64,000 bases of DNA. It comes from a virus. Lineage: Duplodnaviria > Heunggongvirae > Uroviricota > Caudoviricetes. The translations under genes were made by a program, and so were the position numbers. The notes beneath the pieces are model-generated. The model made no database searches. It was not told the DNA's origin and saw nothing but the letters and a program-made list of their open reading frames with translations. Shown one piece after another: positions 5,695 to 63,952 of the stretch. The number at the start of each line of letters is the position of its first letter. Position 1 is the first letter of the stretch. Where the stretch lies: IMG/VR virus record IMGVR_UViG_3300005613_000034; one strand, given 5' to 3'.

Positions 5695-5722
5695 CTCATC
5701 TCCTTTGTAACTCTTTGGTTAC

Positions 5723-26514: not shown

Positions 26515-26736
26515 TTATAACCTCTTAATAATTAACTGATGTCTAAAATTTTCTTTAAAACATTCTAAACAAATAATAAATTTAGTATAATGCGGAAGTT
26601 GTTTATATAATTCCGGGCTTGATAACAAACTACCACCATTCTTATTTACACCTTTATTATAAACATCTTTGCCACACCATTCACATTTACCAATAGGAGG
26701 ATAATTTCCTGGAGGTCTTCCGCGTTTAGCTTTCAT
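26515..26736 (-). CDS. small zinc-finger protein
   Basis: CEWCG...CLEC; start taken at MKAKRGRPP. Confidence 0.4.
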   Translation of the reverse strand: MKAKRGRPPGNYPPIGKCEWCGKDVYNKGVNKNGGSLLSSPELYKQLPHYTKFIICLECFKENFRHQLIIKRL

Positions 26737-29554
26737 TAGAACCACCTTCAGTTGCAAAAAGATTATCTTTAGCAAAATCTCCAAAAATAATTTTTAAAGG
26801 TTTATCATTATTAACTAAAATAAATCTTTTACCATCAATTTCAGAAATTTCAATTGAATAAGATTGTGCCAACTTAGAAGAATGTTTCAACGCCCTATAA
26901 TTAATTTCCGGAGTCCCCCTATTTTCAGGTTTATAAGAATTATCTTCCAAAATATATTTTTCTAAGCCAACGAAAGGAATTTCCTTGTCACTCCCATTTC
27001 TTCTAACATAAGAATAAACAGCATATAAAAAACATTTAATTTCCGCGGCCTCATCATCAAACAAAGATTTAATATATCTTTCCATAATACTATTAGTAAT
27101 ATCCCCTTCAATCATTTCTTTAAAACTATTAATGTTAATACCTTGAATAATATGTAAATATTTTTTAGCAGAATCAATCAATTTTTTAAAATCAATATCA
27201 TCATTGATTAAATCATTCATATATTCAAGAGCCGCAAGACGAAGAGCCATACCATTCATGTGTTTATGACTTGAAACATTACCAACCAAAAATTCTTTAA
27301 AGCTTTGCATATCAGTGTGTTTAGCTAATTCAGTCAATGCATCTTGGTAATTTTTTTCGAAAGGAGCATCTAAAAATTTTAACACGCTTGGGTTTTTTAA
27401 TAATAATGAAAACTTTTTAGAAGTAATGAATCTTAAATACTCAAATTTTGCTTCTAAATCATTAACTTCATCTTCTGTAAGTTTACTATCTCCAGAAATT
27501 CTTTTAGTGTTTGGGTCGAAAACAACAAGAGCGATTCTTGACCCCAAAGCAGCATAATTATTAGTAATTAATTTTAATGTTGAATCAAACTGACTAACAA
27601 TTTTTATTTCGTTTATTCGTTCGCTCGCTAACAAATCATCTTTAGGATTTCCGAGAAAAGTTAAAGATGATAACCCGCGGCAAGTAATACTTTTTTTACC
27701 AACATCAATATTAACTTCACCGCTTTCCATAAAACTCAATAATTTACCATACATCATTTTAGATTCATCTTCTTGGATTTCATCAAGATAATAAGGATTA
27801 GTATTTTCGTGAAGAGTCCCACGATTAATTTCATCACTTGTAGAAAATCCTAAAAGATTTTTAACAGTAGTTCTAATTGCATTGTGCCCAAACCGACTAC
27901 TAATAGTTGATTTTCCAGCTTTAGTTCCAGTGAATAAAAATTTATGATTGTTATAATACTGATATTTTTTATAATCTGAAATAGACATATCCGGAACAAA
28001 GAAGTCAGATTCAAATGCTAATGATACTTTATCATCAACATTCATACCCATTCTAACATAATGTTCAACAATATCTTTTAAATCTTCATTAGATAAAGAT
28101 TTCATATCAGCCTCATCAATACCATGCCCAATAGTATAAAAAATACAATTAGTAGATTTAGCATCTTGTTCTATTAAATAATCAAAAACAGTTTTATTAT
28201 TATCATTCAATTTTTTAATGAACGTATCAACCCGTTTATTCTTTATACCTTGGGAAATAAGAATTTTTTCCAGAATGTGCTCTTCAGGGGGATTTTTTAA
28301 AAATATTGAATATAATCTTTTATTAGATTTAAGAGGAATAAGATAACGTTCGTTATCCCCTTCTTTCAAATCACTTTCATTTTCAGTAAAACAATAACTA
28401 GAAAAGTTACCAGCTAAAAATTTTATCTCGAATAAATTATAAACATATTCTTTACGAGTAGTATTATGAATACCACTTGTAACGATTCCATGCTGATAAA
28501 AAATTTTTTTAACTTCAAAAGACGCGCGGATTGCACGTTTAACACTTCTATTAGTTTTTTCATTATACCTAAAATTATTATACGGACATAAAGAACAAAC
28601 ATCTTTTAAATTATGTTCTTTACAATAATTACTAATCTCACCACAATTAAAAATACGAAACTCATCATTTTTAAATTTTTCATCCCAACCAACAAACTCC
28701 TGCTCATCCATCCCCTGAACTTTCAAAAAATTCTTTCTCAAATCTTTATTACCACTAAAATTAGTATAAACAGAAAGATTTTTAATCAATGTTGCATGAC
28801 GACTACCTTCTGGCATTTTTTCCTGTAAACAAATTTCATCAAAAAATTTACATTTCCTAGCACCCTCGATACTCGCGCTAGTTTTAATACCATTAACTTC
28901 TTTAACATTAGAAGATTCAGCAGACTTATTTTGTTTATAAAGCGCTTCAATAAAATCAATAAATTCATCATTATCATCATATCCAGTATAATCCATCCAA
29001 TAAGAAAGTTTTTCTGCAGAATTATTATAAGTTCCGATGACACGAGTAACACGAGAAAGATTAAATGTTTTACTATCAACCGCAAATTTATCAATCAAAA
29101 AATTTTTAAAATACTCAATTTTTTTCTTAATTGTTTCACGATTAGATTCATTAACTTTAATTCTTTTAAACGGTATTAAAATATGGTATCCTCGGCCACT
29201 AAACGCCAAAGAAGTTTTAATACCATTATCTTTAAGTTTATTATTCAATGAATAAACATCTTTTTGAAGTGCTTCATCGGAAATATGGTCTCCGTGAGCA
29301 TCAAAATCAATAAAAATAGTACTAAGATATTTTACATCTTCATCACGCTTACCAGATTCAATACGTTCATTGATTCCAGTATAAACATCTTTCCCCTCAT
29401 CTGATAATTCAATCACTTTATTGATATATTCAGTTTTTGTTTTAACAAATGAAGATTTTGCGGGATTGAATACCCGAATTTCTGTTTCTTTTTCATGATT
29501 TAGTATATTATAATACTTTTCAATGTCATCTCTATTATTTCTTTCCGATACCAT
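26726..29554 (-). CDS. primase-polymerase (AEP prim-pol) fused to C-terminal P-loop NTPase/helicase-like domain (pRN1 ORF904-like replicase)
   Basis: IFIDFDAHG and AFSGRGYHILIPF prim-pol motifs; later Walker A FTGTKAGKST. Confidence 0.8.
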   Translation of the reverse strand: MVSERNNRDDIEKYYNILNHEKETEIRVFNPAKSSFVKTKTEYINKVIELSDEGKDVYTGINERIESGKRDEDVKYLSTIFIDFDAHGDHISDEALQKDVYSLNNKLKDNGIKTSLAFSGRGYHILIPFKRIKVNESNRETIKKKIEYFKNFLIDKFAVDSKTFNLSRVTRVIGTYNNSAEKLSYWMDYTGYDDNDEFIDFIEALYKQNKSAESSNVKEVNGIKTSASIEGARKCKFFDEICLQEKMPEGSRHATLIKNLSVYTNFSGNKDLRKNFLKVQGMDEQEFVGWDEKFKNDEFRIFNCGEISNYCKEHNLKDVCSLCPYNNFRYNEKTNRSVKRAIRASFEVKKIFYQHGIVTSGIHNTTRKEYVYNLFEIKFLAGNFSSYCFTENESDLKEGDNERYLIPLKSNKRLYSIFLKNPPEEHILEKILISQGIKNKRVDTFIKKLNDNNKTVFDYLIEQDAKSTNCIFYTIGHGIDEADMKSLSNEDLKDIVEHYVRMGMNVDDKVSLAFESDFFVPDMSISDYKKYQYYNNHKFLFTGTKAGKSTISSRFGHNAIRTTVKNLLGFSTSDEINRGTLHENTNPYYLDEIQEDESKMMYGKLLSFMESGEVNIDVGKKSITCRGLSSLTFLGNPKDDLLASERINEIKIVSQFDSTLKLITNNYAALGSRIALVVFDPNTKRISGDSKLTEDEVNDLEAKFEYLRFITSKKFSLLLKNPSVLKFLDAPFEKNYQDALTELAKHTDMQSFKEFLVGNVSSHKHMNGMALRLAALEYMNDLINDDIDFKKLIDSAKKYLHIIQGININSFKEMIEGDITNSIMERYIKSLFDDEAAEIKCFLYAVYSYVRRNGSDKEIPFVGLEKYILEDNSYKPENRGTPEINYRALKHSSKLAQSYSIEISEIDGKRFILVNNDKPLKIIFGDFAKDNLFATEGGSNES

Positions 29555-38338: not shown

Positions 38339-39292
38339 CTACATTTTTTCAATTACAAGGTATTTTTCAATTATTTCTAAAGCGATTTCATTAAATTTTT
38401 GGTGTTCTTTTGCCCATTTAAATTCGTTTCTTTTAAAATCATCTATTGCCTTTTTAAATTCTTCTTTATGATTATTTAAAAATATATATTCAAAAACACA
38501 AGAATTTTTTTCATTTGCTTCTTTGGGAAGACGATGCCACCTTGAATTAAAAATTGTTTTATCATTAAAATTTTTGTTTGTTACAAATATTCCAATCCCA
38601 CCTTCATAACAACTTAAACATATATATGCTCCATGTTTTATATTCAATATTTTTGTTTCATCTTCTGTGATATTGACTAACGGAACTTTTGTTTTTGAAT
38701 TTAAAATTTGGTATAATTCTCTATTTTTATATTCAGTTTTTAATTTTGAAAATACATCTTTACCATAATCATTTAAATATGTTTCAAATTTTTCATATAC
38801 ATCTGGGTAATCATATAGACATTCCATTAAAGATGTTCCTATTCCAGAATATCCATCTAAATTAGAAAAATGCATTATTCCATCATCCCATGTTCCTTTG
38901 TTACCCCGCGAAATTTCTAATGGATTATTTCTATTTGAAAGTAGTTGTGAAAGAGAAAGGTTTTTATTACTACCAACAGTTCTTTTTAAAAGAATATTAG
39001 TTGGTTTTCTTTGTGGCGCTGGGATAAATTCATTATTCATACTTGAATAATCTTTTCGTACAAAAATAGAAAATGGGGTTTTATCTTTATATAAATATTT
39101 CATAACTATTTTATAATAATTTTTTATTTCTCTATCATAAGAACAAACTTTTATAATTTCATTATTACATAAACCTATATCGGTTAATATTTTTTCTGTT
39201 TCTTCAGAATTAATTATATCATAAATTTCTTTTATATTAATCATAATATTCCTCCCGTTTATGGTTTTCTCTAATTTCTTCCCAAGCTTCAT
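38339..39292 (-). CDS. hypothetical protein (317 aa)
   Basis: long ORF, no motif recognised. Confidence 0.45.
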   Translation of the reverse strand: MKLGKKLEKTINGRNIMINIKEIYDIINSEETEKILTDIGLCNNEIIKVCSYDREIKNYYKIVMKYLYKDKTPFSIFVRKDYSSMNNEFIPAPQRKPTNILLKRTVGSNKNLSLSQLLSNRNNPLEISRGNKGTWDDGIMHFSNLDGYSGIGTSLMECLYDYPDVYEKFETYLNDYGKDVFSKLKTEYKNRELYQILNSKTKVPLVNITEDETKILNIKHGAYICLSCYEGGIGIFVTNKNFNDKTIFNSRWHRLPKEANEKNSCVFEYIFLNNHKEEFKKAIDDFKRNEFKWAKEHQKFNEIALEIIEKYLVIEKM

Positions 39293-39409
39293 CTATTAAA
39301 AATACATTTTTATACCATTCTTCAAATGGCATATCTATAGGTTCATCTCCTTGTGCTTCCAAATCTCGATTTAAACAATCATATTCCCATTTTCCAAGTT
39401 CTTTCATAT

Positions 39410-39619
39410 TCATTCGTTTACCTCCTTTAGGTATCTTTCAATTATACAACTATCGGACATTTCGCTAGGCCCAAAACTATCGTATCTTGTTCCTCCTTGT
39501 TCATCTAAATATTTTTCAGCATCTTCTTTTGTATTAAAATCTTTTTCTCTATAAATTACTCCGTATTTATTTCCATGTTCATCTATATAATAGGAATTAA
39601 AAACGACTACAAATTTCAT
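39410..39619 (-). CDS. hypothetical protein (69 aa)
   Basis: ORF. Confidence 0.35.
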   Translation of the reverse strand: MKFVVVFNSYYIDEHGNKYGVIYREKDFNTKEDAEKYLDEQGGTRYDSFGPSEMSDSCIIERYLKEVNE

Positions 39620-39837
39620 TACACCACCTCTTTTTTAAATATTTCTTGTAACTCTTCAAATTCAATGCTTTCACCGCATTCACTACAAGTTATTTCTAAA
39701 GTGCTTCCGTCACTATCTCTTTCAAGTGCATTAAAATCTAATCCTCCAGAACCATCATTTTCTACAGTTCCTTCTTCTATTACATCTTCTTTATAACAAA
39801 ACACTGTATCTTTTTTACATTTCGGGCATATACTCAT
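39619..39837 (-). CDS. zinc-ribbon protein
   Basis: CPKCK...CSECG. Confidence 0.45.
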   Translation of the reverse strand: MSICPKCKKDTVFCYKEDVIEEGTVENDGSGGLDFNALERDSDGSTLEITCSECGESIEFEELQEIFKKEVV

Positions 39838-39850
39838 TCTTCCATCTCCT

Positions 39851-40459
39851 TTATTTTATTTGTTCATAAATAATATTTTCACTATTAAGCTTATAACACT
39901 TTCGGCAAGTATTACAATTCAATGCCCCACAATTAATTTTATCTTTATGTTTATCTCGGCAAACATTGAATACTTTGTCAAATTTTTCCGGTACTTTTGT
40001 TATTGGTTTATCTACTATCGGGTTGCTATAAACTATAATCATATTATTTGGTTTTTCATTTTTTTCTAAAACATTAGTTACAATATCGTTCCTTTTAGTA
40101 TAAAGACTGAATGTTATTGTTTGATTTTTTTCTGCTATGTTCATAAGATTTTTCATGTGTTGTTCGTTTATGAGTTCCCCGTGAGCGTGAATACGAACAA
40201 TGTCGTTCTTCTTAAATGAAGGGATTTGTTCTTGGGATATTTCATTTTGAAGAATTTGTGTATTACGCTCAAACGCAGGAACACAATTCTTTCTATAAGC
40301 TTTAAGCATAGCACAACTATAACAATCTTTACATATAACATTTTTATTTCCGCTGTTATGCATTCTTTGACAGAACGCATTACTTAGTGGGTTTGTGTTA
40401 ATCGCTGGTATATCTTTCATTTTTCCACTCATTACACTTATTTTTATTTTATCAGTCAT
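39851..40459 (-). CDS. Cys-rich protein (202 aa)
   Basis: multiple CxxC pairs CKDCYSC, CNTCRKC. Confidence 0.45.
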   Translation of the reverse strand: MTDKIKISVMSGKMKDIPAINTNPLSNAFCQRMHNSGNKNVICKDCYSCAMLKAYRKNCVPAFERNTQILQNEISQEQIPSFKKNDIVRIHAHGELINEQHMKNLMNIAEKNQTITFSLYTKRNDIVTNVLEKNEKPNNMIIVYSNPIVDKPITKVPEKFDKVFNVCRDKHKDKINCGALNCNTCRKCYKLNSENIIYEQIK

Positions 40460-40627
40460 AATATTACCTCTTCAAAATTACAATCAAAATCATCTAAATT
40501 TCCACCTTTATATTTATTCTTACAAACAGGGCAAACAATCTTAATATCTTTATCACCATATTTAATAATATCTTTACTCAAAATAACATTACACTTTTCA
40601 CACTTCAACATATCCAATTCAATACTC

Positions 40628-40646
40628 ATCTATTTCAACTCCTTTA
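40628..40646 (-). repeat. conserved gene-junction motif copy (distant, 40 kb from array)
   Basis: catctatttcaactccttt followed by attaattccttaactc, as at 266-300. Confidence 0.8.
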
Positions 40647-40908
40647 TTAATTCCTTAACTCTTTCCTCATCAATCTCAACACAACGCAAAAAATCCCTTT
40701 TTCTTTTATCTCCATCTCCAATTCCAATAAAATTATTCTTTATTGCTTTATCCCAACAATCATTTAAATAAATAGAATAAGCCTTTGCAAATCCAATAGC
40801 ATTATCTTCCCACAAAAAATCAAACAAATCATCAACAAGAACAGCATCTTTACAATAACCTATTTGCCCACCAAAACTTTTCTTTTCCAAAAACTCTCTC
40901 ATACCCAT
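40630..40908 (-). CDS. hypothetical protein, cassette family (paralog of 275..613)
   Basis: shared MGMREFL start and RVKELIKELK end plus flanking junction motifs. Confidence 0.6.
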   Translation of the reverse strand: MGMREFLEKKSFGGQIGYCKDAVLVDDLFDFLWEDNAIGFAKAYSIYLNDCWDKAIKNNFIGIGDGDKRKRDFLRCVEIDEERVKELIKELK

Positions 40909-40925
40909 TCTATTTCAACTCCTTT
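40906..40925 (-). repeat. conserved gene-junction motif copy (distant)
   Basis: cattctatttcaactccttt at start of 40630..40908. Confidence 0.8.
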
Positions 40926-41121
40926 ATAATAATTTTTTTCTAATATATCCAACGCGGACATAATCTTCATAACTAATGTCTTTCATAAAATCTAAATCTT
41001 TAATTGTTCCCCCACCCCGCCTAACAATATCATGTAAATCCGCAACATTAATATATTGATTATCCGCTAAATGTTTTAAACTATGTTTTACAAATTTTTT
41101 ATTCTTCATATCCAACACCAA
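40924..41121 (-). CDS. hypothetical protein (65 aa)
   Basis: ORF upstream of junction motif. Confidence 0.35.
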   Translation of the reverse strand: MVLDMKNKKFVKHSLKHLADNQYINVADLHDIVRRGGGTIKDLDFMKDISYEDYVRVGYIRKKLL

Positions 41122-41282
41122 AAATAATTACATTTCCATTATCAGAATCTTGTTCAACATATGTTTCTTTATATATGTTATTCCATTCTTCATCTGATGC
41201 AACTTTCACTTCTTCGTTTTCATCTACTGATTTTAATAGTTTTATTAATTCTTTTACTTTCATTTATTTCACCTCGCTTTAG

Positions 41283-41344
41283 TGGATAGAGAAGGATTCG
41301 AACCCTCTAACGCGTAATGTTTAGCACCTCTAAACTATCTATCC
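41283..41344 (-). ncRNA. tRNA-like minihelix / degenerate tRNA (acceptor stem + T-arm intact; D and anticodon arms replaced by one short hairpin)
   Basis: 5' GGATAGA / 3' TCTATCC-A acceptor; T-arm GAGGG-TTCGAAT-CCTTC; 62 nt total, too short for a canonical tRNA; overlaps ligase stop. Confidence 0.45.
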
Positions 41345-42438
41345 ATCGGATTTATATTGATTGCTACTGGAAATCGCGGCACCCCGTCTTCCGAAAGGTT
41401 TTGGTATCGGATTGTTGCGAGCTTACCTATATATTTATCTTTGTCAATCAACAATTGTTTGTAGTATTCTTCGCCCCCTTTAATTCCTGCACCAAATTCT
41501 TTTCCATTTTTATCAATAACAATCAATTTTCCTGCCATCCCCGAACGATTACCACTACCCTCAACAATATCTTTTATAACAAATTCTTCATCCACAAACT
41601 CTTTATATTTCAAAAGATATTTACTTCTCTTATTTTCATATTCAGAATTTGGAATTCTAACCATAACTCCCTCATATCCTTGTCTTACATAATTATCGTG
41701 AGCCGCCTGAACTTCTAAATGATTATTAGCTTCTTCATTTTCAACAAATTTTAAATATTTCATATCCCCAAACTTATTGATTTCATCTTTAATTAAATTA
41801 AATCTATTTACAAAATTCCAAGTTTCATTTTTCATATCACCATCAAAAATCCAATACTTAATCAATTTTTCGCTATCGGCTAAATCTTGACTTGTTGGTT
41901 TTTGTTGTTTAACTAATGAAATAACTTTTTCAAATGTTTCATCGTGTGCATAAACTTCTCCGTCTATAATCCAGTCCGGATGTTCATCAAAGAACGGTTT
42001 TAATGCTTTGCTTATATGTGGGCATGACTTATATTCTTTCCCATTCCTTGTATATAATCCATCTTTAGTTGCAATCATTCGACACCCATCTATTTTTGGG
42101 CTTACCAAAACCGGAAACGGAACACTATCTTTGTATTGAGTATATTTATGTGCTAACATAGGGTCAAAATATTTCTTTGCCGTATCAATCGCGTTGATGT
42201 CTTCGGTGTATCCTTTATCAATTTTCTTCTGCCATTTTGCTTTGGCTTCAAGCTGTGCTTGTTCTTCGGGTGTCGTTTCATTACTTCGCCCAATATTTTT
42301 TCCTTCACAAATAGTAGGCTTTGATTGAATCAATTTTCCCCCAACTTGCCCAATTATTGTATAAAAGGTATTTCCTTTAACAACAATTTCGTATTGTTGT
42401 ATTGCACCCGTTGTTGTTCTTTTATATATCTTATTCAT
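41335..42438 (-). CDS. ATP-dependent DNA ligase
   Basis: motif I KIDGCR; motif III-like KYWIFDG; EGVMVR; LLKYK motif V. Confidence 0.85.
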   Translation of the reverse strand: MNKIYKRTTTGAIQQYEIVVKGNTFYTIIGQVGGKLIQSKPTICEGKNIGRSNETTPEEQAQLEAKAKWQKKIDKGYTEDINAIDTAKKYFDPMLAHKYTQYKDSVPFPVLVSPKIDGCRMIATKDGLYTRNGKEYKSCPHISKALKPFFDEHPDWIIDGEVYAHDETFEKVISLVKQQKPTSQDLADSEKLIKYWIFDGDMKNETWNFVNRFNLIKDEINKFGDMKYLKFVENEEANNHLEVQAAHDNYVRQGYEGVMVRIPNSEYENKRSKYLLKYKEFVDEEFVIKDIVEGSGNRSGMAGKLIVIDKNGKEFGAGIKGGEEYYKQLLIDKDKYIGKLATIRYQNLSEDGVPRFPVAININPMDR

Positions 42439-42637
42439 TTAAATCTTCTCCATATATTTCTTTTAAATTTTCAATATCTTCATCATCAAGTTCAATAATT
42501 TTAATAGTAACCCCACATTCTAAACAATGATATATTTCTTCACCCTGTCCAAAATATCCTTCTATCATTTTTTTATTACATTTTGTACAATTCATTTTTA
42601 TGCCCCCGCTAAAATTAATCCTGTTAATATTCCACAT
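42431..42637 (-). CDS. zinc-ribbon protein
   Basis: CTKCN...CLECG. Confidence 0.4.
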   Translation of the reverse strand: MWNINRINFSGGIKMNCTKCNKKMIEGYFGQGEEIYHCLECGVTIKIIELDDEDIENLKEIYGEDLNE

Positions 42638-42668
42638 CCGAATATCATTATATATGTCATATCTTCAC

Positions 42669-42899
42669 TCATTTTTTCATCTCCTTTTTAAACATACTAA
42701 AAGGATATTCCAAATTAGTATATTTCTCTGTTTTTCCATCCATTTGAAAAACTAATTCAACATCAGCATAAACTAATTCTTTCTCTTTATCTATTGTAAT
42801 ATTGTTTACATTAATATATCCACCATTACAATAATGTATTCCACTATGTCTTTCTTCATAAGTTTCAATTAATTCTTTAATTTCTTTTTTATTCATCAT
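42669..42899 (-). CDS. hypothetical protein (76 aa)
   Basis: ORF. Confidence 0.35.
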   Translation of the reverse strand: MMNKKEIKELIETYEERHSGIHYCNGGYINVNNITIDKEKELVYADVELVFQMDGKTEKYTNLEYPFSMFKKEMKK

Positions 42900-43394
42900 T
42901 TTAATCCTCCTCTAATACCAATTATTCCAATAACCATATTCTTTTTCAAATAAAGTTTTAAGATATTCAGCTTGTTCTAAATTACCTTCACAATATCTTG
43001 CATTATAACATTCATTTAAAAGCAATGCCTCTCCTTCATCTTCTATCTCTTGAATATCATTATACATATCTATATCATTAGCCATCTAAATTAACCTCCC
43101 GCTCTCCATTTAATTTATTTATAATAGATGTATAATCATTTACATCATTTTCCATTTCTATTTTTATATCTAATGCAGATAATAAAATATTTATTTCATT
43201 ATTATCTAATTCAATCATTTTTTCACCTCTTTATAGTTCTGCTACTATTTCTTCTTCAATTTCTTCTCCACATAAAGGGCATTTATAAACGGTAGTTTCT
43301 TCTTCATAATCATATTCAATACCATTATAATTTCCCTCAACAGAAAATTCAACATAAAAAATTTTCTCCCCACAATTAGGGCATTCAATACTCA

Positions 43395-44551: not shown

Positions 44552-45457
44552 TTATATTTTGTTTAATAATATATATTTACCCGCAATCTTTTTAAGTTCT
44601 TCGTTTATATTTTCCATATGCTGTTTATGGGTTTTAATGTATTCAATATTTTCATTTATAAGAGAAATTATTTCATCTTTATAAAATATTGCAATTATTT
44701 TACTTTCTTTTCTATCCCAAGAAATTTTTTGATTATAATAATTAAATATATCTCTGGTTTGATATCCTTTATTTCTTCCAATAGATACTCCATTTCCAGT
44801 TAAATACAATTTATCTTGTTCATGTAATTCTTGGTAATAATATCCAAAAAATTTTGTATTAAAAGAGTCTTTTGTTATATTACTAATTTCATTTAGTTTT
44901 TCTTGTGGTATATTTATTTCAATATTTTTATAACAATCCATTTTATTATTTATTAATATTTTTTTTATTTTTTCTAAACAGATTTTTCCCTCGTCAGTCA
45001 TAACTTCTTTTATATCATTAAAAAGAATTTCGTTATTAAAAAATCCCCAAAAAGAATAATCTCCATCAAACAAAGAACCTAATGTTGTTATATTTCCATT
45101 TTGATTCCACGCATACCCTATTCCTTTTTTTGATATTTGAATATATCTTCCTGTATAATGTAATTGTCCTAAATGAGTTTTGGTTTGTTTTTTATAAAAA
45201 AATTTTATTATATTATTTATATCATTAGCTATTAAATGTTCTTTTGAATAATATTCTAAATATTTTAAATTATTAATATAAGTTGTTTCAATTTCTTTAA
45301 TAACATTAGAATTATTTATTAATATTTTATCAACTTTATTTTCTGCATTCTGTGAATTTTCATCTCTCATCTTTGTTATTATATTTTCAATTTTATCTTG
45401 TTCTTTTCTGTATGTTAAATTAATATTATTTATATCTTCTATTAATTTTTTATCCAT
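44552..45457 (-). CDS. tandem paralog A of unknown family (KFFYKKxTKT / ISK(K/R)GIG motifs)
   Basis: NNIIKFFYKKQTKT...IQISKKGIGY; C-terminal GKYILLNKI. Confidence 0.55.
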   Translation of the reverse strand: MDKKLIEDINNINLTYRKEQDKIENIITKMRDENSQNAENKVDKILINNSNVIKEIETTYINNLKYLEYYSKEHLIANDINNIIKFFYKKQTKTHLGQLHYTGRYIQISKKGIGYAWNQNGNITTLGSLFDGDYSFWGFFNNEILFNDIKEVMTDEGKICLEKIKKILINNKMDCYKNIEINIPQEKLNEISNITKDSFNTKFFGYYYQELHEQDKLYLTGNGVSIGRNKGYQTRDIFNYYNQKISWDRKESKIIAIFYKDEIISLINENIEYIKTHKQHMENINEELKKIAGKYILLNKI

Positions 45458-45475
45458 GCGCTTCCCTCCAGATAA

Positions 45476-46282
45476 TTATATTAGTTGTGTAGTAAAATAT
45501 TTTGCACCAAGTTGGTTAAAATCTTCTATAAATTTTTCAAAGGTTTTATTTTTATTTCTTGTGTCTTCTCCGTTTTCATTTACAAATTCTGTTATTTCAT
45601 TAATATAAATTCCAGTTAAAGTTTTAGATAAAAAAGAATCACTAAAGTTTATTGACTTATTTGAATAACAAAATAAATCTATAGTTGTTTCCCAAGTATC
45701 GGTAGCACTTGAAGACAATTGAATGTTTGGTTCATCTGTATCACATTCTAAATATAAATATTCAATTTCTTCTTCTTGGTTTCCTATTATTTTTTTAACA
45801 TTATCATCTAATACAATTTTCATTGACTTATCTTTTATTTCACCACTATCTAAATTTTTATTTTTTTCAATTAATTTTTTTAATTTTTCAAAAAAATCTT
45901 TACCTTCATCATTAAGATTTTTTATAAGATTTTTATATACAGATTTTGTTGTTAAAATGTATTCTAATGAATTATCTTTTCCAAATAAATCTTCTAAAAG
46001 TTTCATATTTCCAAATCCATAAACAAATCCTATTCCTCTTTTAGATATTTGATAATTAATGCTACTAAGATATTGAGTTGGTTTTTTATAAAATGTTGTT
46101 TTCGTTGGCTTTTTATAAAAAAATTTTATAATACTATTCAATTGTTTTAACATTTTTTCTTTATTTTCATTATTATAATAATGTCTTAATTTTATGCTTT
46201 CCAAATCATGTTTAAGTAATTCAGCATTCTTTTCGGCGTTATTATTAAATTCTATAATGTTTTCAACTTCTTTTGTATTCAT
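45476..46282 (-). CDS. tandem paralog B of same family
   Basis: LNSIIKFFYKKPTKT...YQISKRGIGF. Confidence 0.55.
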   Translation of the reverse strand: MNTKEVENIIEFNNNAEKNAELLKHDLESIKLRHYYNNENKEKMLKQLNSIIKFFYKKPTKTTFYKKPTQYLSSINYQISKRGIGFVYGFGNMKLLEDLFGKDNSLEYILTTKSVYKNLIKNLNDEGKDFFEKLKKLIEKNKNLDSGEIKDKSMKIVLDDNVKKIIGNQEEEIEYLYLECDTDEPNIQLSSSATDTWETTIDLFCYSNKSINFSDSFLSKTLTGIYINEITEFVNENGEDTRNKNKTFEKFIEDFNQLGAKYFTTQLI

Positions 46283-46296
46283 ATATTTCCCTCCAT

Positions 46297-47121
46297 TTAT
46301 AATGCTTTTATTAATAAATATTTTGAAGACAAATCATTAAATTCATTAATAAAGTTTTCCCATTTTTCATTTTCAACTTTCAATATTTTAGCGACATCGT
46401 TTGTAATCTTTTTTAATTCATCAAAATAAATTAATGTTATAATTTGACTATCAAAAGAGTTTGCATAATCAATACCTTTATAACCTTTCCCATATTGAAA
46501 CAACCTATATTCATTTCTAAAATAATCTTCTTTTTCATTACTATCAATCACATATAATTTAACTACCCCACGTTCGTTTACCATTTCAATTTTATTTATA
46601 TTTTCTGTGCCAGTAATTAAATTTACTAAACTATTTGATTCAATATCAAATACATCTTTTGTTGGTTTATATTTTAATTCATATTTTTTAATTAAATTTT
46701 TAAGTTCTTTAAAATATGTTTTTCCATTATCGTTTAATTTTTCATACACTTCATTAAACAACTCTTCGTTTTCAAAAACAATTGCCATAGGATAGTCTTC
46801 ATCAAAAAACTTATAAAATAATTCCATATTAGAACCCGAATAATACCCAGTTCCTATTCCTCGTTTTGAAAATTGAATGTGTCTTTCGGGATTGTATCCC
46901 CTATTATTATCATTTAATTTATATTTTTTAAGTTCTGTTTTTGTTTGTTTAGAATAAAAAAACTTCATAATATTATTTATATCAGAAGCTATTTTTTTAT
47001 TTGACTCATACCCATTATCAGAAAATAAAGTTATCGTATCTAAATCTTCTTTTAATTCATTAATTTTATCTCTGTTTTTTACTATATATTCTTCTGTTTG
47101 TTTAAATGTTGTGCAATCCAT
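46297..47121 (-). CDS. tandem paralog C of same family
   Basis: INNIMKFFYSKQTKT...IQFSKRGIGT. Confidence 0.55.
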   Translation of the reverse strand: MDCTTFKQTEEYIVKNRDKINELKEDLDTITLFSDNGYESNKKIASDINNIMKFFYSKQTKTELKKYKLNDNNRGYNPERHIQFSKRGIGTGYYSGSNMELFYKFFDEDYPMAIVFENEELFNEVYEKLNDNGKTYFKELKNLIKKYELKYKPTKDVFDIESNSLVNLITGTENINKIEMVNERGVVKLYVIDSNEKEDYFRNEYRLFQYGKGYKGIDYANSFDSQIITLIYFDELKKITNDVAKILKVENEKWENFINEFNDLSSKYLLIKAL

Positions 47122-49947: not shown

Positions 49948-50634
49948 TTATAATTTTGCTATTACCAAATATTTTGAACATTCATCTTCATATTCTTTTA
50001 TTATTTTTTCTAATTTAATTGATTTCTTTTTATGTTCAGATTTTAATTCTTTTAATAAAGGGGTTAATTCTTTTTTTAGTTCCCTCTGTAAAAAAAATCC
50101 TTGCATTTGATAAGTATAATATTGATAACAAAATTTTAATCTTAAATAATTACCATATTTTATTTTATTTTTTATATAAATATTTCCAGTTGTTCCAACA
50201 AACAATTCACATTTTACTTTTTGTTTAGAAAAATTATTATAAAAAAAAATACATTCTGCTAATCCTTTATTAATAATAATTTCGTGTCTATTGATTTTTT
50301 TAAAATTAATATCTGTTCTATTTGCTTTACCATAAAACAATAATGCTTTTTCTATAAATTCAATTTCGTGTTTTGGAATTTTTGTTTCATAATTATGTTT
50401 AATAAAATGATAACCCGTTTTATAATCCCTCATATACGCATTATACCAACGATTAATCAATCCCTTATTTCTCATTTCGGCAACTAAAACAGGGCAACAT
50501 ATTTTTATATCATTCGCAAGTCGTTCAATAAAATTTTCTGATATTGGGGTTTTAAGTCCTAAACAAAATGTTTCATCTTTTGTTAGCTTAATATGTTTTC
50601 GGTTTAACATTTTTACTATATTTTGATATTCCAT
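49948..50634 (-). CDS. fourth, diverged member of the 44552-47121 paralog family
   Basis: similar length and C-terminal SKYLVIAKL ending; weaker internal similarity. Confidence 0.4.
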   Translation of the reverse strand: MEYQNIVKMLNRKHIKLTKDETFCLGLKTPISENFIERLANDIKICCPVLVAEMRNKGLINRWYNAYMRDYKTGYHFIKHNYETKIPKHEIEFIEKALLFYGKANRTDINFKKINRHEIIINKGLAECIFFYNNFSKQKVKCELFVGTTGNIYIKNKIKYGNYLRLKFCYQYYTYQMQGFFLQRELKKELTPLLKELKSEHKKKSIKLEKIIKEYEDECSKYLVIAKL

Positions 50635-54451: not shown

Positions 54452-54842
54452 TTAATCACCTATTTATATATATTTTCGGGAATAAAGCAACATAACGGAT
54501 TAAAGCGATTAATAAAGGCAGAAAAACCCCTTAAAAATAAAAAGAAGGTTAAACTGAACTTGGATTTTGAAACAAAGCCCAAAATGAGCTTTAAATCAAA
54601 AATAAACCTTAAAATTAGGTTTAAATCCAAAAACCAATATTTCACGCAAAAAAGCAGTTATGCTGAAATGCCCGAAAATGTTAATTTTATTAACAAATAT
54701 GATATACTAACGGAAAGAGAGTTTATATAGAATGTGTGAATTTTGCTGTAATATATGGACAGGAAAACAGGGTTTATATGTATCAAAATATACAGGAATA
54801 ACTAATTAACTGAACAAAATGAACATTAACTAAGCGTAGTGA

Positions 54843-54894
54843 ATGAGTGAATTGTTATGTAGAAGTGGCGAAAATGAGCTGTTATGTAGAAGTG
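54843..54894. repeat. two direct repeats AATGAG..TGTTATGTAGAAGTG (~23 bp) in strand-switch region
   Basis: 54843-54868 and 54871-54894. Confidence 0.8.
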
Positions 54895-54935
54895 AATATA
54901 GGTGAACTAGCGCAAACGGAGGGCTACATCCCCCT

Positions 54936-54990
54936 TAAATTATATAAATTATATAAATTATATAAATTTTATAAAGTTTATAAATTTTAT
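54936..54990. repeat. tandem TTATATAAA / TTTATAAA AT-rich repeats (iteron or DUE-like)
   Basis: aaattatataaattatataaattatataaattttataaagtttataaatttta; related copies 55075-55125. Confidence 0.8.
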
Positions 54991-55591
54991 ATGAGAGTGG
55001 TTTTCACCAAAAAATTCAATCCTCATAGAGCGCGAAATTAAAAAAAATTGAAAAAATGGCGAAGCACTATATCCATATAAATTTTATATGATATATAAAT
55101 TTTATAAATTTTATAAGAGATTTCTAGTACATCGATCACATCAAAAAGAAACAATCTTTTTCTTTTGTCTAAACTCTTTAAACAATTACAGTACTATATA
55201 AACAAAAAGCTTTGTGTGGCGGCATTCAAGACCAGCTGAAATTCCAAATTTTTGAGTTTTGGCTCGTAGTTAAAAATTAGGGTAAGGGTAGTAGTCGAAA
55301 AAGTGTTCAAAATAGCATGAAACAACACTTGTTTACCTTATTGCACTATTGTTAAATTTGGTTTCGGGGTGGCTTTAGACCCCCGTAGAATAAACGCAGA
55401 CCCCCAATACACCTATTTTACGGCACCCTGATATAGGTAGGGGCAAAAAACGATTTTTTGTGAGGGAGACTTTATCAAATTTTACAAAAATGTTTTGAGT
55501 TGATGCCCAGGAGACCCTTTTTAACAGTTGCCCAGGCCATTTCTGGACCAGAGTAAAAACATTTATATACTTTGATGCACTATAATATATA

Positions 55592-56644
55592 ATGACATCA
55601 AAAAAATCTGATATTGATAGAACAAATCTTTCTGACATACCTTCATATAGCAAAATGTTTGATAAAATAAAATCAATAGACATCAACGAATACAAAGGAT
55701 ATACCCGGAAAAGAATGATTTGGGTAAAGGCAGCCGCTACTATTCTACTATTAACGGGGTGTAGGGTTACTGAATTACTTTTACTTAGAAAAAAAGATAT
55801 TCGATTCTTTGGATTTAATAATAATGAATTGGTTGGGCAGTTTGATATTTCCCAGATTGCATCAATGCAATTTAATTTATATACCGAGAAGAACCGTAAA
55901 AACAAGTATAGAGTTGTTCCTGTTGTAAAAAACAGTTTTTTTATTGACATGATATCTATTGTATATGATTTTTATAAAACCTTTGATTATGATGAGACAT
56001 ATTTATTCCCACTCACAAGGCAGGGGGTATGGAATGGTATAAAGGCGGTTTTTGGAAATAATATGTTTCCACACTTCCTTAGACACATTTCAGTAACTAA
56101 TGATACTAAAGCTGGTATTTCTCCATCTATTATTAAATCTAAATATGGGTGGACGGATCTTAGACCACATTCAATTTATTCACACTTGAATTGGTTTGAT
56201 ATTCAAACCGCACAAACTTCTGCATGGGGGGAGGCCGCACCCGCTCCAAAAGCCATTATTATTGAACGCCCTAGTTGGATGAAAGGGTCTTATGCCCAAA
56301 TGACCAATTATAATAAAAAAGTTGAGCATGCATTACATAATAATCAAGATTTTGTTCCGCGAGATTTTGATACTATTGAAGAAGCACTTAAAAATAAAGT
56401 TGAAATGGGGGATTCAATAGATGGTAAAATTGTTGTTATTTTGTCTAGAGAGACCGATTTTGATAAAGCTAAAAAGAGGTTTGACGGGAATAAATATATA
56501 TTGATTTATGCTAAAAGTAAGGAAGCTATTAAAAAAATGGAAAGTGTTACTAATGCGTCCGCTCAAAAACGAAGCCCGAATCCAACCCCCCAACCTCCAA
56601 CAAAAACAGTTCCTAAAAATACTCCTCAATTAGCTATGGTGTAG
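55592..56644 (+). CDS. tyrosine recombinase / integrase
   Basis: box I-like LLLTGCRVTELLLLRKKDI (Arg); HFLRHISVT (H-x-x-R); HSIYSHL (Tyr); ~120-aa Pro-rich C-terminal extension. Confidence 0.75.
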   Translation: MTSKKSDIDRTNLSDIPSYSKMFDKIKSIDINEYKGYTRKRMIWVKAAATILLLTGCRVTELLLLRKKDIRFFGFNNNELVGQFDISQIASMQFNLYTEKNRKNKYRVVPVVKNSFFIDMISIVYDFYKTFDYDETYLFPLTRQGVWNGIKAVFGNNMFPHFLRHISVTNDTKAGISPSIIKSKYGWTDLRPHSIYSHLNWFDIQTAQTSAWGEAAPAPKAIIIERPSWMKGSYAQMTNYNKKVEHALHNNQDFVPRDFDTIEEALKNKVEMGDSIDGKIVVILSRETDFDKAKKRFDGNKYILIYAKSKEAIKKMESVTNASAQKRSPNPTPQPPTKTVPKNTPQLAMV

Positions 56645-56845
56645 ATATCTTTTTAAAGTCTTCTGTACATTAATATTATATGGTGACGCGTAAACCAATG
56701 CGAGAAATTGAATTAGATGCATTTGCATTGATTCGTGAATTTGACGATACTCTTGAATATATGGAGAAGAGAATTTTTTATATGAGGCGAAAAGTTGCTG
56801 AAATTAGAAAAGAATTAATAAAACAAAGACCTGATTTTGTAGGAG

Positions 56846-57172
56846 ATGATTGAATTGAGTAAAATTGTGTTGTTATCTAAAGTTAAATTTTCGTTAGGAA
56901 TTATCGGAATGATGTTTAGAAAGAAAAAATTGATTCCACACGTTTTTAAAAAACGGGGGTTTTTTACTGTAAATTCAATGCATGGGTGGTTTATGAGTTA
57001 TCCGATTGACATAATTTTTTTGAATGATAAAAATATTGTCGTAGACAAAGCTTGTTTTGGCCCTTTTGGTGGTTATACTTCTAAGGTTAAAGGAATTGTT
57101 TATGCTGTTGAGGCAATGGAAGGCGATTTTGATGAAATTGAATTGGGAGATACTGTTTTGTGGAATGGGTGA
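56846..57172 (+). CDS. DUF192-like small protein
   Basis: ...ACFGPFGGYTSKVKGIVYAVEAMEGDFDEIELGDTV pattern. Confidence 0.4.
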   Translation: MIELSKIVLLSKVKFSLGIIGMMFRKKKLIPHVFKKRGFFTVNSMHGWFMSYPIDIIFLNDKNIVVDKACFGPFGGYTSKVKGIVYAVEAMEGDFDEIELGDTVLWNG

Positions 57173-57178
57173 TTTTTT

Positions 57179-57544
57179 ATGAGTAAAATTTTATATGGTG
57201 GATTAATTATAATAGCAATAGTTGTAATTGTTATAGGTTGGGGGATTATTTCTGAACCGAAGGTTAATGTTGATAATTTAGCAGAATGTTTGACTGAAAA
57301 AGGTGTTATAATGGCAGGAACGGATACTTGTGCGGCATGTCAAGAACAAAAGCGCCAATTTGGGGATGCATTTGATAAAATCAATTACAAGAATTGTGAT
57401 TATGAAGGAGAGTGGTGTAAACAAAATAATATTACCGGGTTTCCAACATGGGTTTTTCCGGATAGAACCTATTATCGGGGGGTTCAAAATTTAGGGTTTT
57501 TACAACAAGTTTCTGGATGTGAATTATATGAAAAAGAAAAATAA
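57179..57544 (+). CDS. membrane-anchored thioredoxin-fold protein (CxxC)
   Basis: N-terminal TM; GTDTCAACQEQK. Confidence 0.55.
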   Translation: MSKILYGGLIIIAIVVIVIGWGIISEPKVNVDNLAECLTEKGVIMAGTDTCAACQEQKRQFGDAFDKINYKNCDYEGEWCKQNNITGFPTWVFPDRTYYRGVQNLGFLQQVSGCELYEKEK

Positions 57545-57801
57545 AGTAATTTTGTCACGTGAACAAGTTGCTTTGATGTCATTTGGTATTGGTGTTGGGG
57601 TGGGTATTTGTTTGACTTTACGTTGTCTGGAGTGATTGAATGTTTTTTCGGATCTCCGGCTTGTCAGGCTTCTACAGCGTGTGGTATTCCCGATTGTATG
57701 TTAGCTACGCTAAGTATTGTTATTTTGGTTATTGTTGTTGTGTTTGGTTGGCAGGCGTTTTCTAGTTAAGTTTTTAAACATGTCGCCACATATTTAATAT
57801 A

Positions 57802-58044
57802 TTGGTGGAGATGATAAAAATGAATAAGTTAATAATAATTGGAATAACTTTAATCCTAATAATTTCGTTATTTGGGTGTACTGAAAGTAAAAAAGAAGGA
57901 TTCAAGACCGAAGATTGTGAAAATGATTGTGAAAGTTTAGGGCAAAAATATTTTAAATATAATTATTCAATGGGTGGGTACGGCCCAAGTATTGTACAAT
58001 GTTGGTGTGTAAACGATGAAAATGTTGTACAACAGGTATGGTGA
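57802..58044 (+). CDS. small Cys-rich lipoprotein-like peptide (80 aa)
   Basis: signal plus SLFGC-TES lipobox-like site; 6 Cys in mature part. Confidence 0.5.
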   Translation: MVEMIKMNKLIIIGITLILIISLFGCTESKKEGFKTEDCENDCESLGQKYFKYNYSMGGYGPSIVQCWCVNDENVVQQVW

Positions 58045-58050
58045 TAAAAA

Positions 58051-58479
58051 ATGAGTAATAATGAAGATTTAGTTGAAAGAGTTGATTGGGAAAAAATTCA
58101 ACCAATGTCTAGATATGCCGGGGGGCATGATGATCAAATGGAAGGGTTATTAAAAAATTCTACTGTTTTAGCTCATTGGAATGAAGGGGATTATCAAGGA
58201 AGTGTTGCGACATGTGTCCAATTGAATGATACTAAAGAAATAGTGATTTTTTGTGATTATTATGGTTCTTGTAGTGGGTGTGATGCGTGGGAAGATGCTT
58301 CTGATGAAGAAGCTTTAAGAATGTGTAAAGGTCTTGCAGCTGGGGCAAAAATATTTAAGAATATTGAAGAATGTAAAGAATTTTTATCTCTAGAAAAATA
58401 TGAATCTAATGATTATGAATGGGACTGTTGTTCAAAAGAATTACTTGAAGAACTTGAAAATGGTGAAAAAGATGACTAA
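58051..58479 (+). CDS. hypothetical Cys-rich protein (142 aa)
   Basis: FCDYYGSCSGCDAW; stop overlaps next ATG. Confidence 0.45.
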   Translation: MSNNEDLVERVDWEKIQPMSRYAGGHDDQMEGLLKNSTVLAHWNEGDYQGSVATCVQLNDTKEIVIFCDYYGSCSGCDAWEDASDEEALRMCKGLAAGAKIFKNIEECKEFLSLEKYESNDYEWDCCSKELLEELENGEKDD

Positions 58480-59032
58480 AAAACTCAACATTGGATGTGG
58501 GAATCAATACGAAAAAGGTTGGGTTAACACCGAAATTGTTGAAGGGTGTAAAGCCGATTTTTATTTTGATGCTGGGAGAGATCCGTGGCCTTTTCCAGAT
58601 AATACTTTTGAACGCATGAAAGCTGAACATGTTTTTGAACATTTACCAGATTATGATGCAAGAATGCATTTTTTACGCGAAGCTCATAGAGTTTGTGAAC
58701 CAGGGGCAAAAATTTTCTTAGCAATGCCATATTCAAGCAGTGGTGGAACTTGGAATGACATGCAACATATTCGACCATTTGGGGCCGCAAGTTTTGATTA
58801 TGTTTCAGTCAATCCTTCTTCGAAGGTTTCTATTATGCATGACCAGGAAGTAGGTGATCTTGTGGGGGCATTCAAACAAAAGACTACGATAAAATTCGGG
58901 CGATTTTATACAAAATTCCTTTTCCTTGAATTTTTTGCAAATTGGTGGCACACTCGTCATATTTATGAGTTGTTATTTCAATATATTTTCCAAGCACAAG
59001 AATTACACGCTCATTTAGAGGTGGTAAAATAG
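58472..59032 (+). CDS. class I SAM-dependent methyltransferase
   Basis: LNIGCGNQ motif I; start taken at MTKKLNIGCG (ATGA overlap). Confidence 0.65.
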   Translation: MTKKLNIGCGNQYEKGWVNTEIVEGCKADFYFDAGRDPWPFPDNTFERMKAEHVFEHLPDYDARMHFLREAHRVCEPGAKIFLAMPYSSSGGTWNDMQHIRPFGAASFDYVSVNPSSKVSIMHDQEVGDLVGAFKQKTTIKFGRFYTKFLFLEFFANWWHTRHIYELLFQYIFQAQELHAHLEVVK

Positions 59033-59167
59033 AATTGTGCCCAGAATGCGGTAGTTGTAGATCGATGAAATTTTATGGAAAAGGAGCAAAAAAAGGATTA
59101 GGAATAAAAATGCTCGTTATACACTGCGAGTATTGTGGGGCAAAACAAATAAGTTGGGTGAAAACAG

Positions 59168-60208: not shown

Positions 60209-60390
60209 GTTTAAGAAGTTGGCATCAAGTAGTGGGGAGTTTTGGGTTTTTAATTTTAATAGCATTTTTGGGGCAATTACTTGAATCAAGGTCAATTTCA
60301 ATTTTTATATTAATGATAATGCTTTTTATTTGTGGAATGTTTTTTGGTTATGGAATACTCATTCCAGTAAAAGAGGATGTGAAAAAATGA
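60205..60390 (+). CDS. small membrane protein
   Basis: 2 TM; start taken at MSLRSW after GGAG. Confidence 0.4.
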   Translation: MSLRSWHQVVGSFGFLILIAFLGQLLESRSISIFILMIMLFICGMFFGYGILIPVKEDVKK

Positions 60391-60680
60391 CTTTAGATAT
60401 GTATGGAAATCCTGTTTTGCCGTGGTATGCTAAATTTGGGTTCATTCTTGGAGCAATAATTGCATTTATACAAATCCCACTTATAATATCACATTTTTTA
60501 CAAATAGAAAATGTTGAACAACCAATAAGGCCGATTGTAACTTCTTTGCCAGATGCAATTGATATTATATTAACTTCTTGGTGGATTATGTTATGGGTAT
60601 TAATTTTGGCTATATTAATAGGAATTATTTCAGCAGTAATAGAAATGTATGGGTTGCCGCGGGAGGATGAGATACATTGA
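60387..60680 (+). CDS. small membrane protein
   Basis: 2-3 TM; start taken at MTLDMYG. Confidence 0.4.
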   Translation: MTLDMYGNPVLPWYAKFGFILGAIIAFIQIPLIISHFLQIENVEQPIRPIVTSLPDAIDIILTSWWIMLWVLILAILIGIISAVIEMYGLPREDEIH

Positions 60681-61624: not shown

Positions 61625-61662
61625 ATTGTTCGCTAGACTATATATATGGAGATGATAGTTAG

Positions 61663-62986: not shown

Positions 62987-63052
62987 TGAAATGCCCAAAC
63001 TGTGGAAGTGAAGAATATAACTCTAATGGAAACTTGAATCAATGTTTGGAAT

Positions 63053-63268: not shown

Positions 63269-63270
63269 AT

Positions 63271-63948: not shown

Positions 63949-63952
63949 TTCA

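Follow-up and report, generated by a model that had tools for sequence, protein, structure and literature searches.

The small genes of the phage studied here are joined by a short repeated sequence which, in our judgement, probably does two jobs at once: it acts as the ribosome-binding site of the gene that follows, and it doubles as the crossover point at which genes are exchanged as cassettes. The phage is represented by a stretch of 64,000 nucleotides (nt), which we call the window, from the Caudoviricetes virus recorded in IMG/VR as IMGVR_UViG_3300005613_000034. All positions refer to this window, and the junctions, as we call the repeated sequence, lie on its minus strand together with two paralogous genes that they bound. 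One of these paralogs belongs to the main array of junction-bounded genes, and the other, a gene of 92 amino acids (aa) found elsewhere in the window, would then be an ectopic cassette of the array type. Phage genomes contain many small, fast-changing accessory genes, many of which have been found to serve in host takeover or anti-defence, and there is only a partial picture of how they are acquired, kept expressed and moved.

The junction reads AAGGAGTTGAAAT(GA/AG) on the coding strand, and we refer to AAGGAGTTGAAAT as the exact 13-mer. Its layout is 5'-AAG GAG TTG AAA T(GA/AG), followed by 0-3 nt and then by ATG. The letters AAGGAG form a Shine-Dalgarno (SD) sequence located 9-12 nt before the ATG; read in frame, AAG GAG TTG AAA also close the upstream gene as its four final codons (K-E-L-K), and TGA or TAG is its stop. 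The initial annotation, which described the motif as tctatttcaactccttt (on the coding, minus strand, AAAGGAGTTGAAATAGA and then ATG), missed this primary nature of the junction, which is a ribosome-binding site together with a stop codon.

The window contains 14 matches to the 13-mer, twelve of them exact and two near (at most one mismatch), all on the minus strand, as against 0.34 expected; none of 100 shuffled sequences reaches 14. Ten of these matches fall within positions 1-4300, where they mark out the main array:

134-4256, minus strand: main array of small genes, running past the left end of the window.
136-148, 277-289, 612-624 (one mismatch), 974-986 and 1153-1165, minus strand: junction copies of the main array.
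1287-1299, 2582-2594, 2687-2699, 3781-3793 and 4136-4148, minus strand: further junction copies of the main array.
275-607, minus strand: 110-aa paralog (112 aa if read from the GTG at 613), between the junctions at 612-624 and 277-289.
1285-2430, minus strand: N6/N4 DNA methyltransferase, ending in KELK and stop.
2685-3467, minus strand: PAPS-reductase-like protein, ending in KELK and stop.

A start codon follows every copy, and wherever a gene follows, its ATG stands 2-5 nt beyond the 13-mer. Ten of the twelve exact copies are the in-frame KELK-stop end of an upstream open reading frame (ORF) of 34-386 codons. In the case of the copy at 3781-3793, read-through takes the ORF to KELKE. Altogether eleven ORFs in the window end in KELK and stop, one of which (at 40912-40924) is only a 9-codon remnant, so that the tail is common to ten unrelated proteins, the methyltransferase and the PAPS-reductase-like protein among them.

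All eleven of these tails are encoded by AAG-GAG-TTG, despite the fact that AAG, GAG and TTG make up only 13%, 12% and 19% of the K, E and L codons in the window's long ORFs. Thus, the junction is conserved as DNA or RNA and not as a peptide. The KELK tail is an add-on: the methyltransferase resembles phage and metagenome methyltransferases only as far as residue ~370 of its 381, and those relatives each end in a different tail.

The junction is primarily a translation signal, and the simplest reading of its anatomy is a strong, open ribosome-binding site in the stop-start geometry typical of translational coupling. The sequence AAAGGAGTTGA agrees at 10 of 11 positions with the complement of AAAGGAGGTGA, which we take to be the near-universal 3' end of 16S rRNA, although it may not be that of the host. 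With the same presumed anti-SD tail, again not necessarily the host's, AAGGAG and TGA can pair, whereas AAAT(R)(R) cannot. When 61-nt RNA windows at the junctions are folded, minimum free energies range from -0.2 to -3.4 kcal/mol, no stabler than those of shuffled controls (z >= 0), and the SD is essentially unpaired.

We also considered whether the junction might be a promoter, a terminator, a hairpin or an attC site, and we reject these readings because there is no enrichment, there are no inverted repeats, and the folds are weak. Promoter-like sites number 21 against 26.8 expected in 39000-43000, and 30 against 26.3 in 1-6500; the junction itself offers only TTGAAA as a -35-like hexamer, with a -10-like partner after three copies only. 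Terminator-like sites are absent near the second paralog, and the single one in 1-6500 lies outside the array. No inverted repeat, dyad symmetry or hairpin potential was found at the junctions.

Two of the exact copies lie far from the array and bracket the second paralog, at what we call the satellite locus. The locus, which is situated between a ligase gene and a GP88-like gene, is laid out as follows:

40924-41121, minus strand: 65-aa ORF (61 aa from the ATG at 41109), without family assignment, ending in RKKLL and stop.
40909-40927, minus strand: upstream satellite junction ATAAAGGAGTTGAAATAGA, with the SD AAGGAG at 40924-40919 and the ATG of the 92-aa gene at 40908-40906.
40630-40908, minus strand: 92-aa gene, MGMREFL...RVKELIKELK and stop, whose last four codons and stop are the downstream junction.
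40629-40647, minus strand: downstream satellite junction, in which AAG GAG TTG AAA TAG is the KELK-stop of the 92-aa gene.
40456-40629, minus strand: 57-aa zinc-ribbon-like gene, served by the downstream satellite junction.

The initial annotation had pointed to two satellite copies of the junction, and these are indeed exact direct repeats: the copies of AAGGAGTTGAAAT at 40632-40644 and 40912-40924 extend to 40629-40647 and 40909-40927, which are identical over 19 nt and 280 nt apart. The downstream repeat also supplies the SD of the gene that follows, where no nucleotide comes between the stop and the ATG (40629-40627). At the upstream repeat, the preceding gene stops at a TAA (40926-40924) that overlaps the motif's first A's. 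The copy at 40912-40924 is therefore the sole exact copy that is not the KELK-stop of a real upstream gene. When the 30 nt upstream of the left satellite junction are aligned to those of the array cassettes, the score of 11 is not significantly above the mean of 5.6 (sd 3.8). We have therefore dropped the idea that the tail of a neighbouring cassette was carried along; in the absence of above-chance homology in these 30 nt, the left edge of the transplanted unit would be the junction itself. Exact-protein look-ups of the methyltransferase and of the 57-aa gene returned no match.

It was also correctly recognized at the outset that the bracketed gene is homologous to the gene at 275-613. The 92-aa and 110-aa proteins are 40% identical (BLASTP, E = 6e-13) and have in common MGMREFL and RVKELIKELK. 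That the satellite gene arose as a duplicate of the array gene, copied together with its junctions, is a different matter. A pairwise alignment of the two genes does recover nucleotide identity, but no more than three blocks of it: one of 68 nt (92.6%) closes the genes at the 3' end, one of 38 nt (94.7%) opens them at the 5' end, and one of 26 nt (96%) falls in the middle. The remaining ~150 nt do not align. Given the 40% identity and the coexistence of both types in a single relative (contig L005, described below), the satellite gene was not recently copied from the one at 275-613; the two are old paralogs. Likewise, the flank attaattccttaactc, which had been listed as matching sequence around the genes, is the coding 3' end of the gene itself, that is, the part encoding RVKELI of the C-terminal RVKELIKELK.

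The wider family of these paralogs places the matching ends in context. A word-indexed search yields 24 homologs, and an exhaustive profile search at least 142 clusters at 50% identity. The members, of ~90-130 aa, are unannotated and come only from metagenomes: the family profile picks up nothing in IMG/VR or in the genomes of GTDB, and JGI metagenomes yield no more than two short loci. Scans of IMG/VR with the exact junction 21-mer and 19-mer return nothing except one chance match, in an unrelated contig of 39% GC. A typical member consists of an N-terminus M..(K/R)EF(L/W), a conserved block LFxFLWERGGKQF, a hypervariable middle, and a C-terminal block AQDFLDC(V/L)A...E(E/D)(R/K)VKELIKEL. Conserved terminal blocks and a hypervariable middle are thus normal for the family, and the similar ends and unalignable middle of the window's two genes follow this pattern. 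The ends, which had been taken as a sign that junctions were copied along with the gene, are family blocks, and VKELIKEL is ancestral to the family and not a creation of the junction. A synonymous-site test for recent gene conversion in the conserved blocks finds the same codons across distant lineages.

The family is itself mosaic. If we denote N-terminal segments by A, B and C, and middle segments by x, y and z, then P0013 is A + x, P0018 is B + x, P0016 is B + y, and P0011 is A + z; the middle of P0008 is chimeric, and P0003, the family gene of contig L006, joins an N-terminal half of the 110-aa type to the middle of P0007. The joins are located in the FLWERGGKQF and QDFLDCVAIDEE blocks, which points to crossovers in conserved blocks and would amount to the cassette principle operating inside a gene. 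With at least 142 clusters and a hypervariable core, the family is a candidate for diversifying selection. Pfam and PHROG searches with the paralog gave no match. The 92-aa protein, a divergent member in which DNAIG replaces the nearly invariant RGGK motif of the family, is modelled by AlphaFold as all-helical with moderate confidence (predicted local distance difference test, pLDDT, 72), and a Foldseek search of BFVD with this model gave no match.

The evidence for exchange comes from comparing the window with related metagenome contigs (L001, L002, L004, L005, L006, L007, L008 and L011). Contig L001 (ENA ERZ27256772) matches the window from 50908 to 40623. The first 9,444 nt are without a mismatch, and two 6-mismatch patches come after them, at the 3' end of the ligase and within the 3' half of the 92-aa gene. 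The contig remains identical through the downstream satellite junction and is unrelated from 40628 on, i.e. from the first codons of the 57-aa gene; its next gene is an extra cassette encoding a DUF7336 protein that ends in EELK, and another junction stands at the end of the contig. Contig L008, from the same sample, resumes at window position 40538, inside the 57-aa gene. The break in the one and the resumption in the other mean that the ERZ27256772 phage has one or more additional cassettes at the satellite site. In L001, the 92-aa gene has the L005 allele in its 3' half, and the DUF7336 cassette recurs in identical form in L006, behind a different paralog of the family; the crossover thus used the family gene's conserved 3' block together with the junction.

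Other relatives differ from the window in the same manner. Contig L005 (JGI 3300005346) has in common with it precisely the 110-aa gene together with the junctions on either side (356 nt, 97.5%), and both flanks are unrelated. A counterpart of the 92-aa gene (85.5% nucleotide identity) stands in the same array two cassettes further on, so that the paralogs are 480 nt apart in L005 as compared with 40 kb in the window. Contig L002 matches window 8000-5674 at 98% identity and continues at 93-99% as far as 4120. Past the first KELK junction, its array consists of nine other cassettes, one of them an MT-A70 methyltransferase, and most end in (L)EKELK. Contig L006 carries window cassettes in a different order, with the DUF7336 cassette again placed after the family gene. 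The mobility of cassettes proposed in the initial annotation is therefore borne out insofar as junction-bounded genes have been exchanged (L001, L005, L002), with the reservation that at least one crossover fell inside the conserved 3' part of the family gene.

Small mosaic patches are also seen away from the junctions. Relative to L001 and L008, the window shows 4-6 mismatches within 25-73 nt at 41392-41464 (3' end of the ligase) and at 40286-40310 (the GP88-like gene), in surroundings that are 100% identical. These clusters look like short gene-conversion tracts from related phages, and because they lie away from junctions, general mosaicism must be high.

The form of the junction differs from lineage to lineage. 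L002 repeats a unit of ~30 nt, GAACTTGA(A/G)AAGGAGTTGAAATAGAATG; the junction of L004 is CAAAAGGGTGAATTATG, with tails in KQKGEL; and the tails in L007 are KVKE. The tail of the family protein follows the local type in each lineage (KELIKELK, KELIKQKGEL or LIEEKEKVKE). A second type is present in the window itself, in a block that adjoins the KELK block:

4837-5503, minus strand: block of the second junction type, GGTGGTTGAATGA, with copies at 4837-4849, 5007-5019, 5375-5387 and 5491-5503.

With a further copy at 2427-2439 (one mismatch) there are five copies against 0.14 expected. At these junctions the proteins end in VVE, and the stop TGA overlaps the next ATG; the GGTGGTTGAATGA type also occurs in L002. 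The junctions are homogenized by lineage and by block, a pattern that selection on the SD alone does not explain. Such uniformity fits either spread and homogenization by recombination or co-variation with a lineage-specific factor.

Two places in the main array are irregular. In 134-274, the ATG after the junction at 277-289 opens only a 14-codon ORF, while an ORF ending in KELK and stop (134-268) lies in another frame, with a GTG or internal ATGs as its start; the stretch looks like a frameshifted or decaying cassette. The other is 3868-4137, which follows immediately on the first KELK junction. Pyrimidines come to dominate the coding strand here, and the minus-strand ORF of 89 aa does not look like a gene. 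The plus strand has an ORF of 62 aa (3932-4120), without a Pfam or PHROG match, and the RNA fold there has a z-score of -0.54. This stretch may be an inverted cassette or non-coding DNA.

We suggest that these patterns arise as follows. A ribosome that ends one small gene would be held by SD pairing and restart on the next gene, and a promoter-less run of small genes could in this way be translated from one unstructured mRNA. The 13-30 nt that recur at many gene boundaries would in addition provide crossover points for short-homology recombination, as would the 68-85-nt conserved ends of the paralog family. Since the same short sequence recurs at many boundaries, genes between junctions would behave as cassettes, which could be inserted, deleted, replaced or relocated. 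The 92-aa gene could have received one junction on each side through a single crossover of an excised cassette, or through unequal exchange, at an SD-like site, and the move may have been from array to satellite or the reverse. The exchanges are consistent with ordinary homologous recombination. Transposition, which the initial annotation had named as one route, finds no footing here: no transposition machinery is indicated, and no adjacent recombinase was found.

Cassette swapping at these junctions is a variant of the gene shuffling already known in other phages. Among known systems, the promoter-early stem-loop (PeSL) cassettes in the hyperplastic regions of T4-type phages (Arbiol et al. 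2010, PMC2839356; Comeau et al. 2014, PMC4122927) are the closest match in function, and the Start-Associated Sequences (SAS) of Cluster K mycobacteriophages (Pope et al. 2011, PMC3203893) the closest as a motif. As with PeSLs, short conserved expression signals are repeated between small non-essential ORFans of a large phage; the ends of indels and replacements between close relatives (L001, L002, L005 and L006 versus the window) coincide with the repeats; and the gene with its signal is the module that is shuffled. However, the PeSL is a transcription signal, a sigma-70-like promoter with a terminator stem-loop, and is intergenic, whereas the junction is a translation signal that overlaps the upstream coding sequence, shows no promoter or terminator enrichment, and has no hairpin. 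Mini-circles have been demonstrated for PeSLs (PMC2839356; PMC4122927). What sets the junction apart is that a shared signal extends into the reading frame upstream and so stamps a common C-terminal tetrapeptide on unrelated proteins. The geometry, too, has a known counterpart, in translational coupling at overlapping or abutting stop-start junctions (reviewed in PMC12548453): the SD likewise lies inside the upstream gene, 9-12 nt ahead of the ATG, and 0-3 nt separate stop and start. Ordinary coupled genes, however, have each their own junction, whereas here an identical 13-19-mer is found at a dozen unrelated genes and gives them their common C-terminal tetrapeptide.

Several observations weigh against the dual role that we propose. 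A junction-like GGAGTTGAAAAAATGA occurs at 60193, within a plus-strand module, which fits a simple preference for this ribosome-binding sequence. The 6-mismatch tract of L001 begins inside the 92-aa gene, and so implicates the family's coding block rather than the 13-mer. In L008, from a near-identical phage, a 356-nt insertion of three small genes (694-1049), after the GP88-like gene (window ~39846-39867), has its breakpoint at an ordinary AAAGGAG SD and not at a KELK junction. Given that small-gene indels also occur at ordinary SDs, breakpoints sited at junctions could partly reflect selection for intact genes. Finally, no empty satellite site was found in relatives with 70-78% identical GP88. 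These relatives have neither the family gene nor a junction there, but the region is rearranged around GP88, and they cannot be used as an unoccupied site. As a side observation on this region, L011 (6388-7137) has a ligase of 85% aa identity to that at window 41335-42438, located downstream of a 78%-identical GP88 and not upstream.

Some of these observations lend credit to an explanation by convergence alone, in which the motif is simply the best ribosome-binding and stop-start geometry for the host, evolved or retained independently at each gene, and swaps arise from illegitimate recombination followed by selection for intact genes, with no role for the junction in recombination. The motif is indeed an unstructured SD at the correct spacing, the similar GGAGTTGAAAAAATGA and the non-KELK breakpoint of L008 are what this account would lead one to expect, and most other genes of the window also have strong SDs, of the GGAGG type. 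Nonetheless, an SD would not require identity of this extent, which takes in TTGAAAT, a fixed frame and, in L002, as much as ~30 nt with the rarer CTT codon for leucine; copies cluster by block, with the KELK block beside the VVE block; and the uniform junction differs by lineage, with the same protein family taking the local tail. We therefore consider convergence alone unlikely.

Quite improbable, in our view, is that the part of the junction beyond the SD is a regulatory operator, bound by a phage or host protein or by a small RNA that would switch the gene set through translation or mRNA cleavage. Such a role is known for RegA and RegB of T4, which act on early mRNAs. An operator would suit the invariant 13-15-mer on a specific subset of genes, the others using GGAGG-type SDs, and it would suit conservation at the nucleotide level. 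There is also a close parallel in SAS, for which a role as a translational switch has been proposed (PMC3203893). On the other hand, no candidate factor has been identified, the factor would have to co-vary with a motif that differs between close lineages, and cassette swaps are left unexplained by an operator as such; an operator is compatible with the dual role that we favour, and does not exclude it.

The parallel with SAS deserves some detail. SAS, too, are 13-nt asymmetric motifs in one orientation, with 11-19 copies per genome, located a few bases upstream of the ATG (3-7 bp for SAS) of non-structural genes. Both contain an AGGAG core; SAS have conserved positions besides it that the SD does not explain, as the junction would also have if its host's 16S rRNA ends in the near-universal sequence. 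In both, the upstream stop sometimes lies within the motif. Their function is presumed to be translational, though unproven (PMC3203893). The SAS consensus GGGATAGGAGCCC is nevertheless unrelated to the junction AAGGAGTTGAAAT in sequence, phage group and host, and the junction is an analogue of SAS and not a member. Moreover, SAS occur dispersed throughout the genome's right half, and every second one has an extra inverted repeat (ESAS), whereas our junctions stand at consecutive gene boundaries, in frame with the upstream gene (KELK-stop), and are tied to cassette exchange.

A dedicated site-specific system similar to that of integrons, in which a recombinase recognizes the junction and inserts or excises cassettes, is very improbable. 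As in integrons (attC and IntI), the small genes are of the same orientation, apparently promoter-less, bounded by a repeated site, and variable in content; a tyrosine recombinase (a weak Pfam Phage_integrase match, on the opposite strand) lies just beyond the array of L002, and the window has another at 55592-56644. But the cassette boundaries have no attC-like imperfect palindrome, the junction being without dyad symmetry or hairpin potential; 51 kb separate the window's integrase from the array and 15 kb from the satellite; no adjacent intI-attI-Pc platform is seen in the window, beyond which the array's far end lies; and at least one exchange had its crossover in ordinary homologous coding sequence. 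As for the notion that the KELK peptide itself is selected, as a tag for sorting, stability or interaction, with the nucleotide repeat as a by-product, the same four terminal residues on unrelated proteins speak for it, yet it is strongly disfavoured and barely credible given the lack of synonymous variation in 11 of 11 tails despite a strong genome-wide preference for AAA, GAA and TTA, the chemically different tails of other lineages (VVE, KQKGEL, KVKE), and the tolerance of read-through variants (KELKE, KELKKK, KELKW).

A more far-reaching version of the dual role of junctions can be put forward only tentatively, and we regard it as possible rather than probable. One sequence that is ribosome-binding site, upstream stop and crossover point would constitute an enzyme-free, integron-like system of gene capture. 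Any gene acquiring it, along with the KELK tail, would become an expressed cassette that could be placed at any copy; the lineage dialects (KELK, VVE, KQKGEL, KVKE) would limit exchange to compatible genomes, and the mosaics of the paralog family would be the same principle at work within a gene. If the dual role itself holds, a captured gene would be expressed at once without a promoter of its own, and the common C-terminal tail of unrelated proteins would be explained. In practical terms, the junction motif offers a simple signature for plastic arrays in metagenomes, and annotators may wish to treat KELK-type tails as by-products of junctions.

The window as a whole is part of a large, previously undescribed phage. 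A megablast of 38-46 kb against GenBank phages gave no nucleotide match, and the best GenBank phage protein matches of the window are ~37% identical. All genes from ~54.5 kb to position 1 are on the minus strand. This block of 54 kb contains replication and nucleotide-metabolism genes and many small ORFans; among its products are a D5-type primase, a DNA polymerase, NrdD, an ATP-dependent ligase, a MoxR ATPase and its VWA partner, and nucleases that resemble Cas4/RecB and Mre11. Its ORFs of 1743, 942 and 453 aa (9807-15038, 26726-29554 and 15077-16438, respectively) have no Pfam or PHROG match, and very large ORFs of this kind underline the novelty of the phage. At ~54.5 kb the coding strand switches, and a plus-strand module spans 54500-64000. 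Features of this end of the window include:

55592-56644, plus strand: tyrosine recombinase, in the plus-strand module.
59168-60208, plus strand: radical-SAM protein, the end of whose gene contains the junction-like GGAGTTGAAAAAATGA.
63876-63948: tRNA-Ile(GAT), from the tRNA scan.

This tRNA is the only hit in the window from the Rfam and tRNA scans combined.

The base composition of the minus-strand block is uneven. Many of its small ORFs have 1.7-7% C on the coding strand, as compared with 12-13% in the ligase and GP88 genes, and the GC skew reaches -0.59 in 1-4000. We had considered using base composition to trace the 92-aa gene to the array, and we dropped the idea because C-depletion is common to most small ORFs, the neighbours of that gene included. 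Only the preference for AAG, GAG and TTG is stronger in the array and the 92-aa gene, where these codons account for 39-62% of K, E and L codons, versus 11-18% in large genes.

Lastly, four proteins of 228-301 aa, encoded at 44552-47121 and 49948-50634, have no Pfam or PHROG match. They have in common C-terminal ends of the form KY(L/F/I), and in one pair a stretch of 57 nt is 84% identical. From these similarities, the four appear to form a second paralog family within the replication block.

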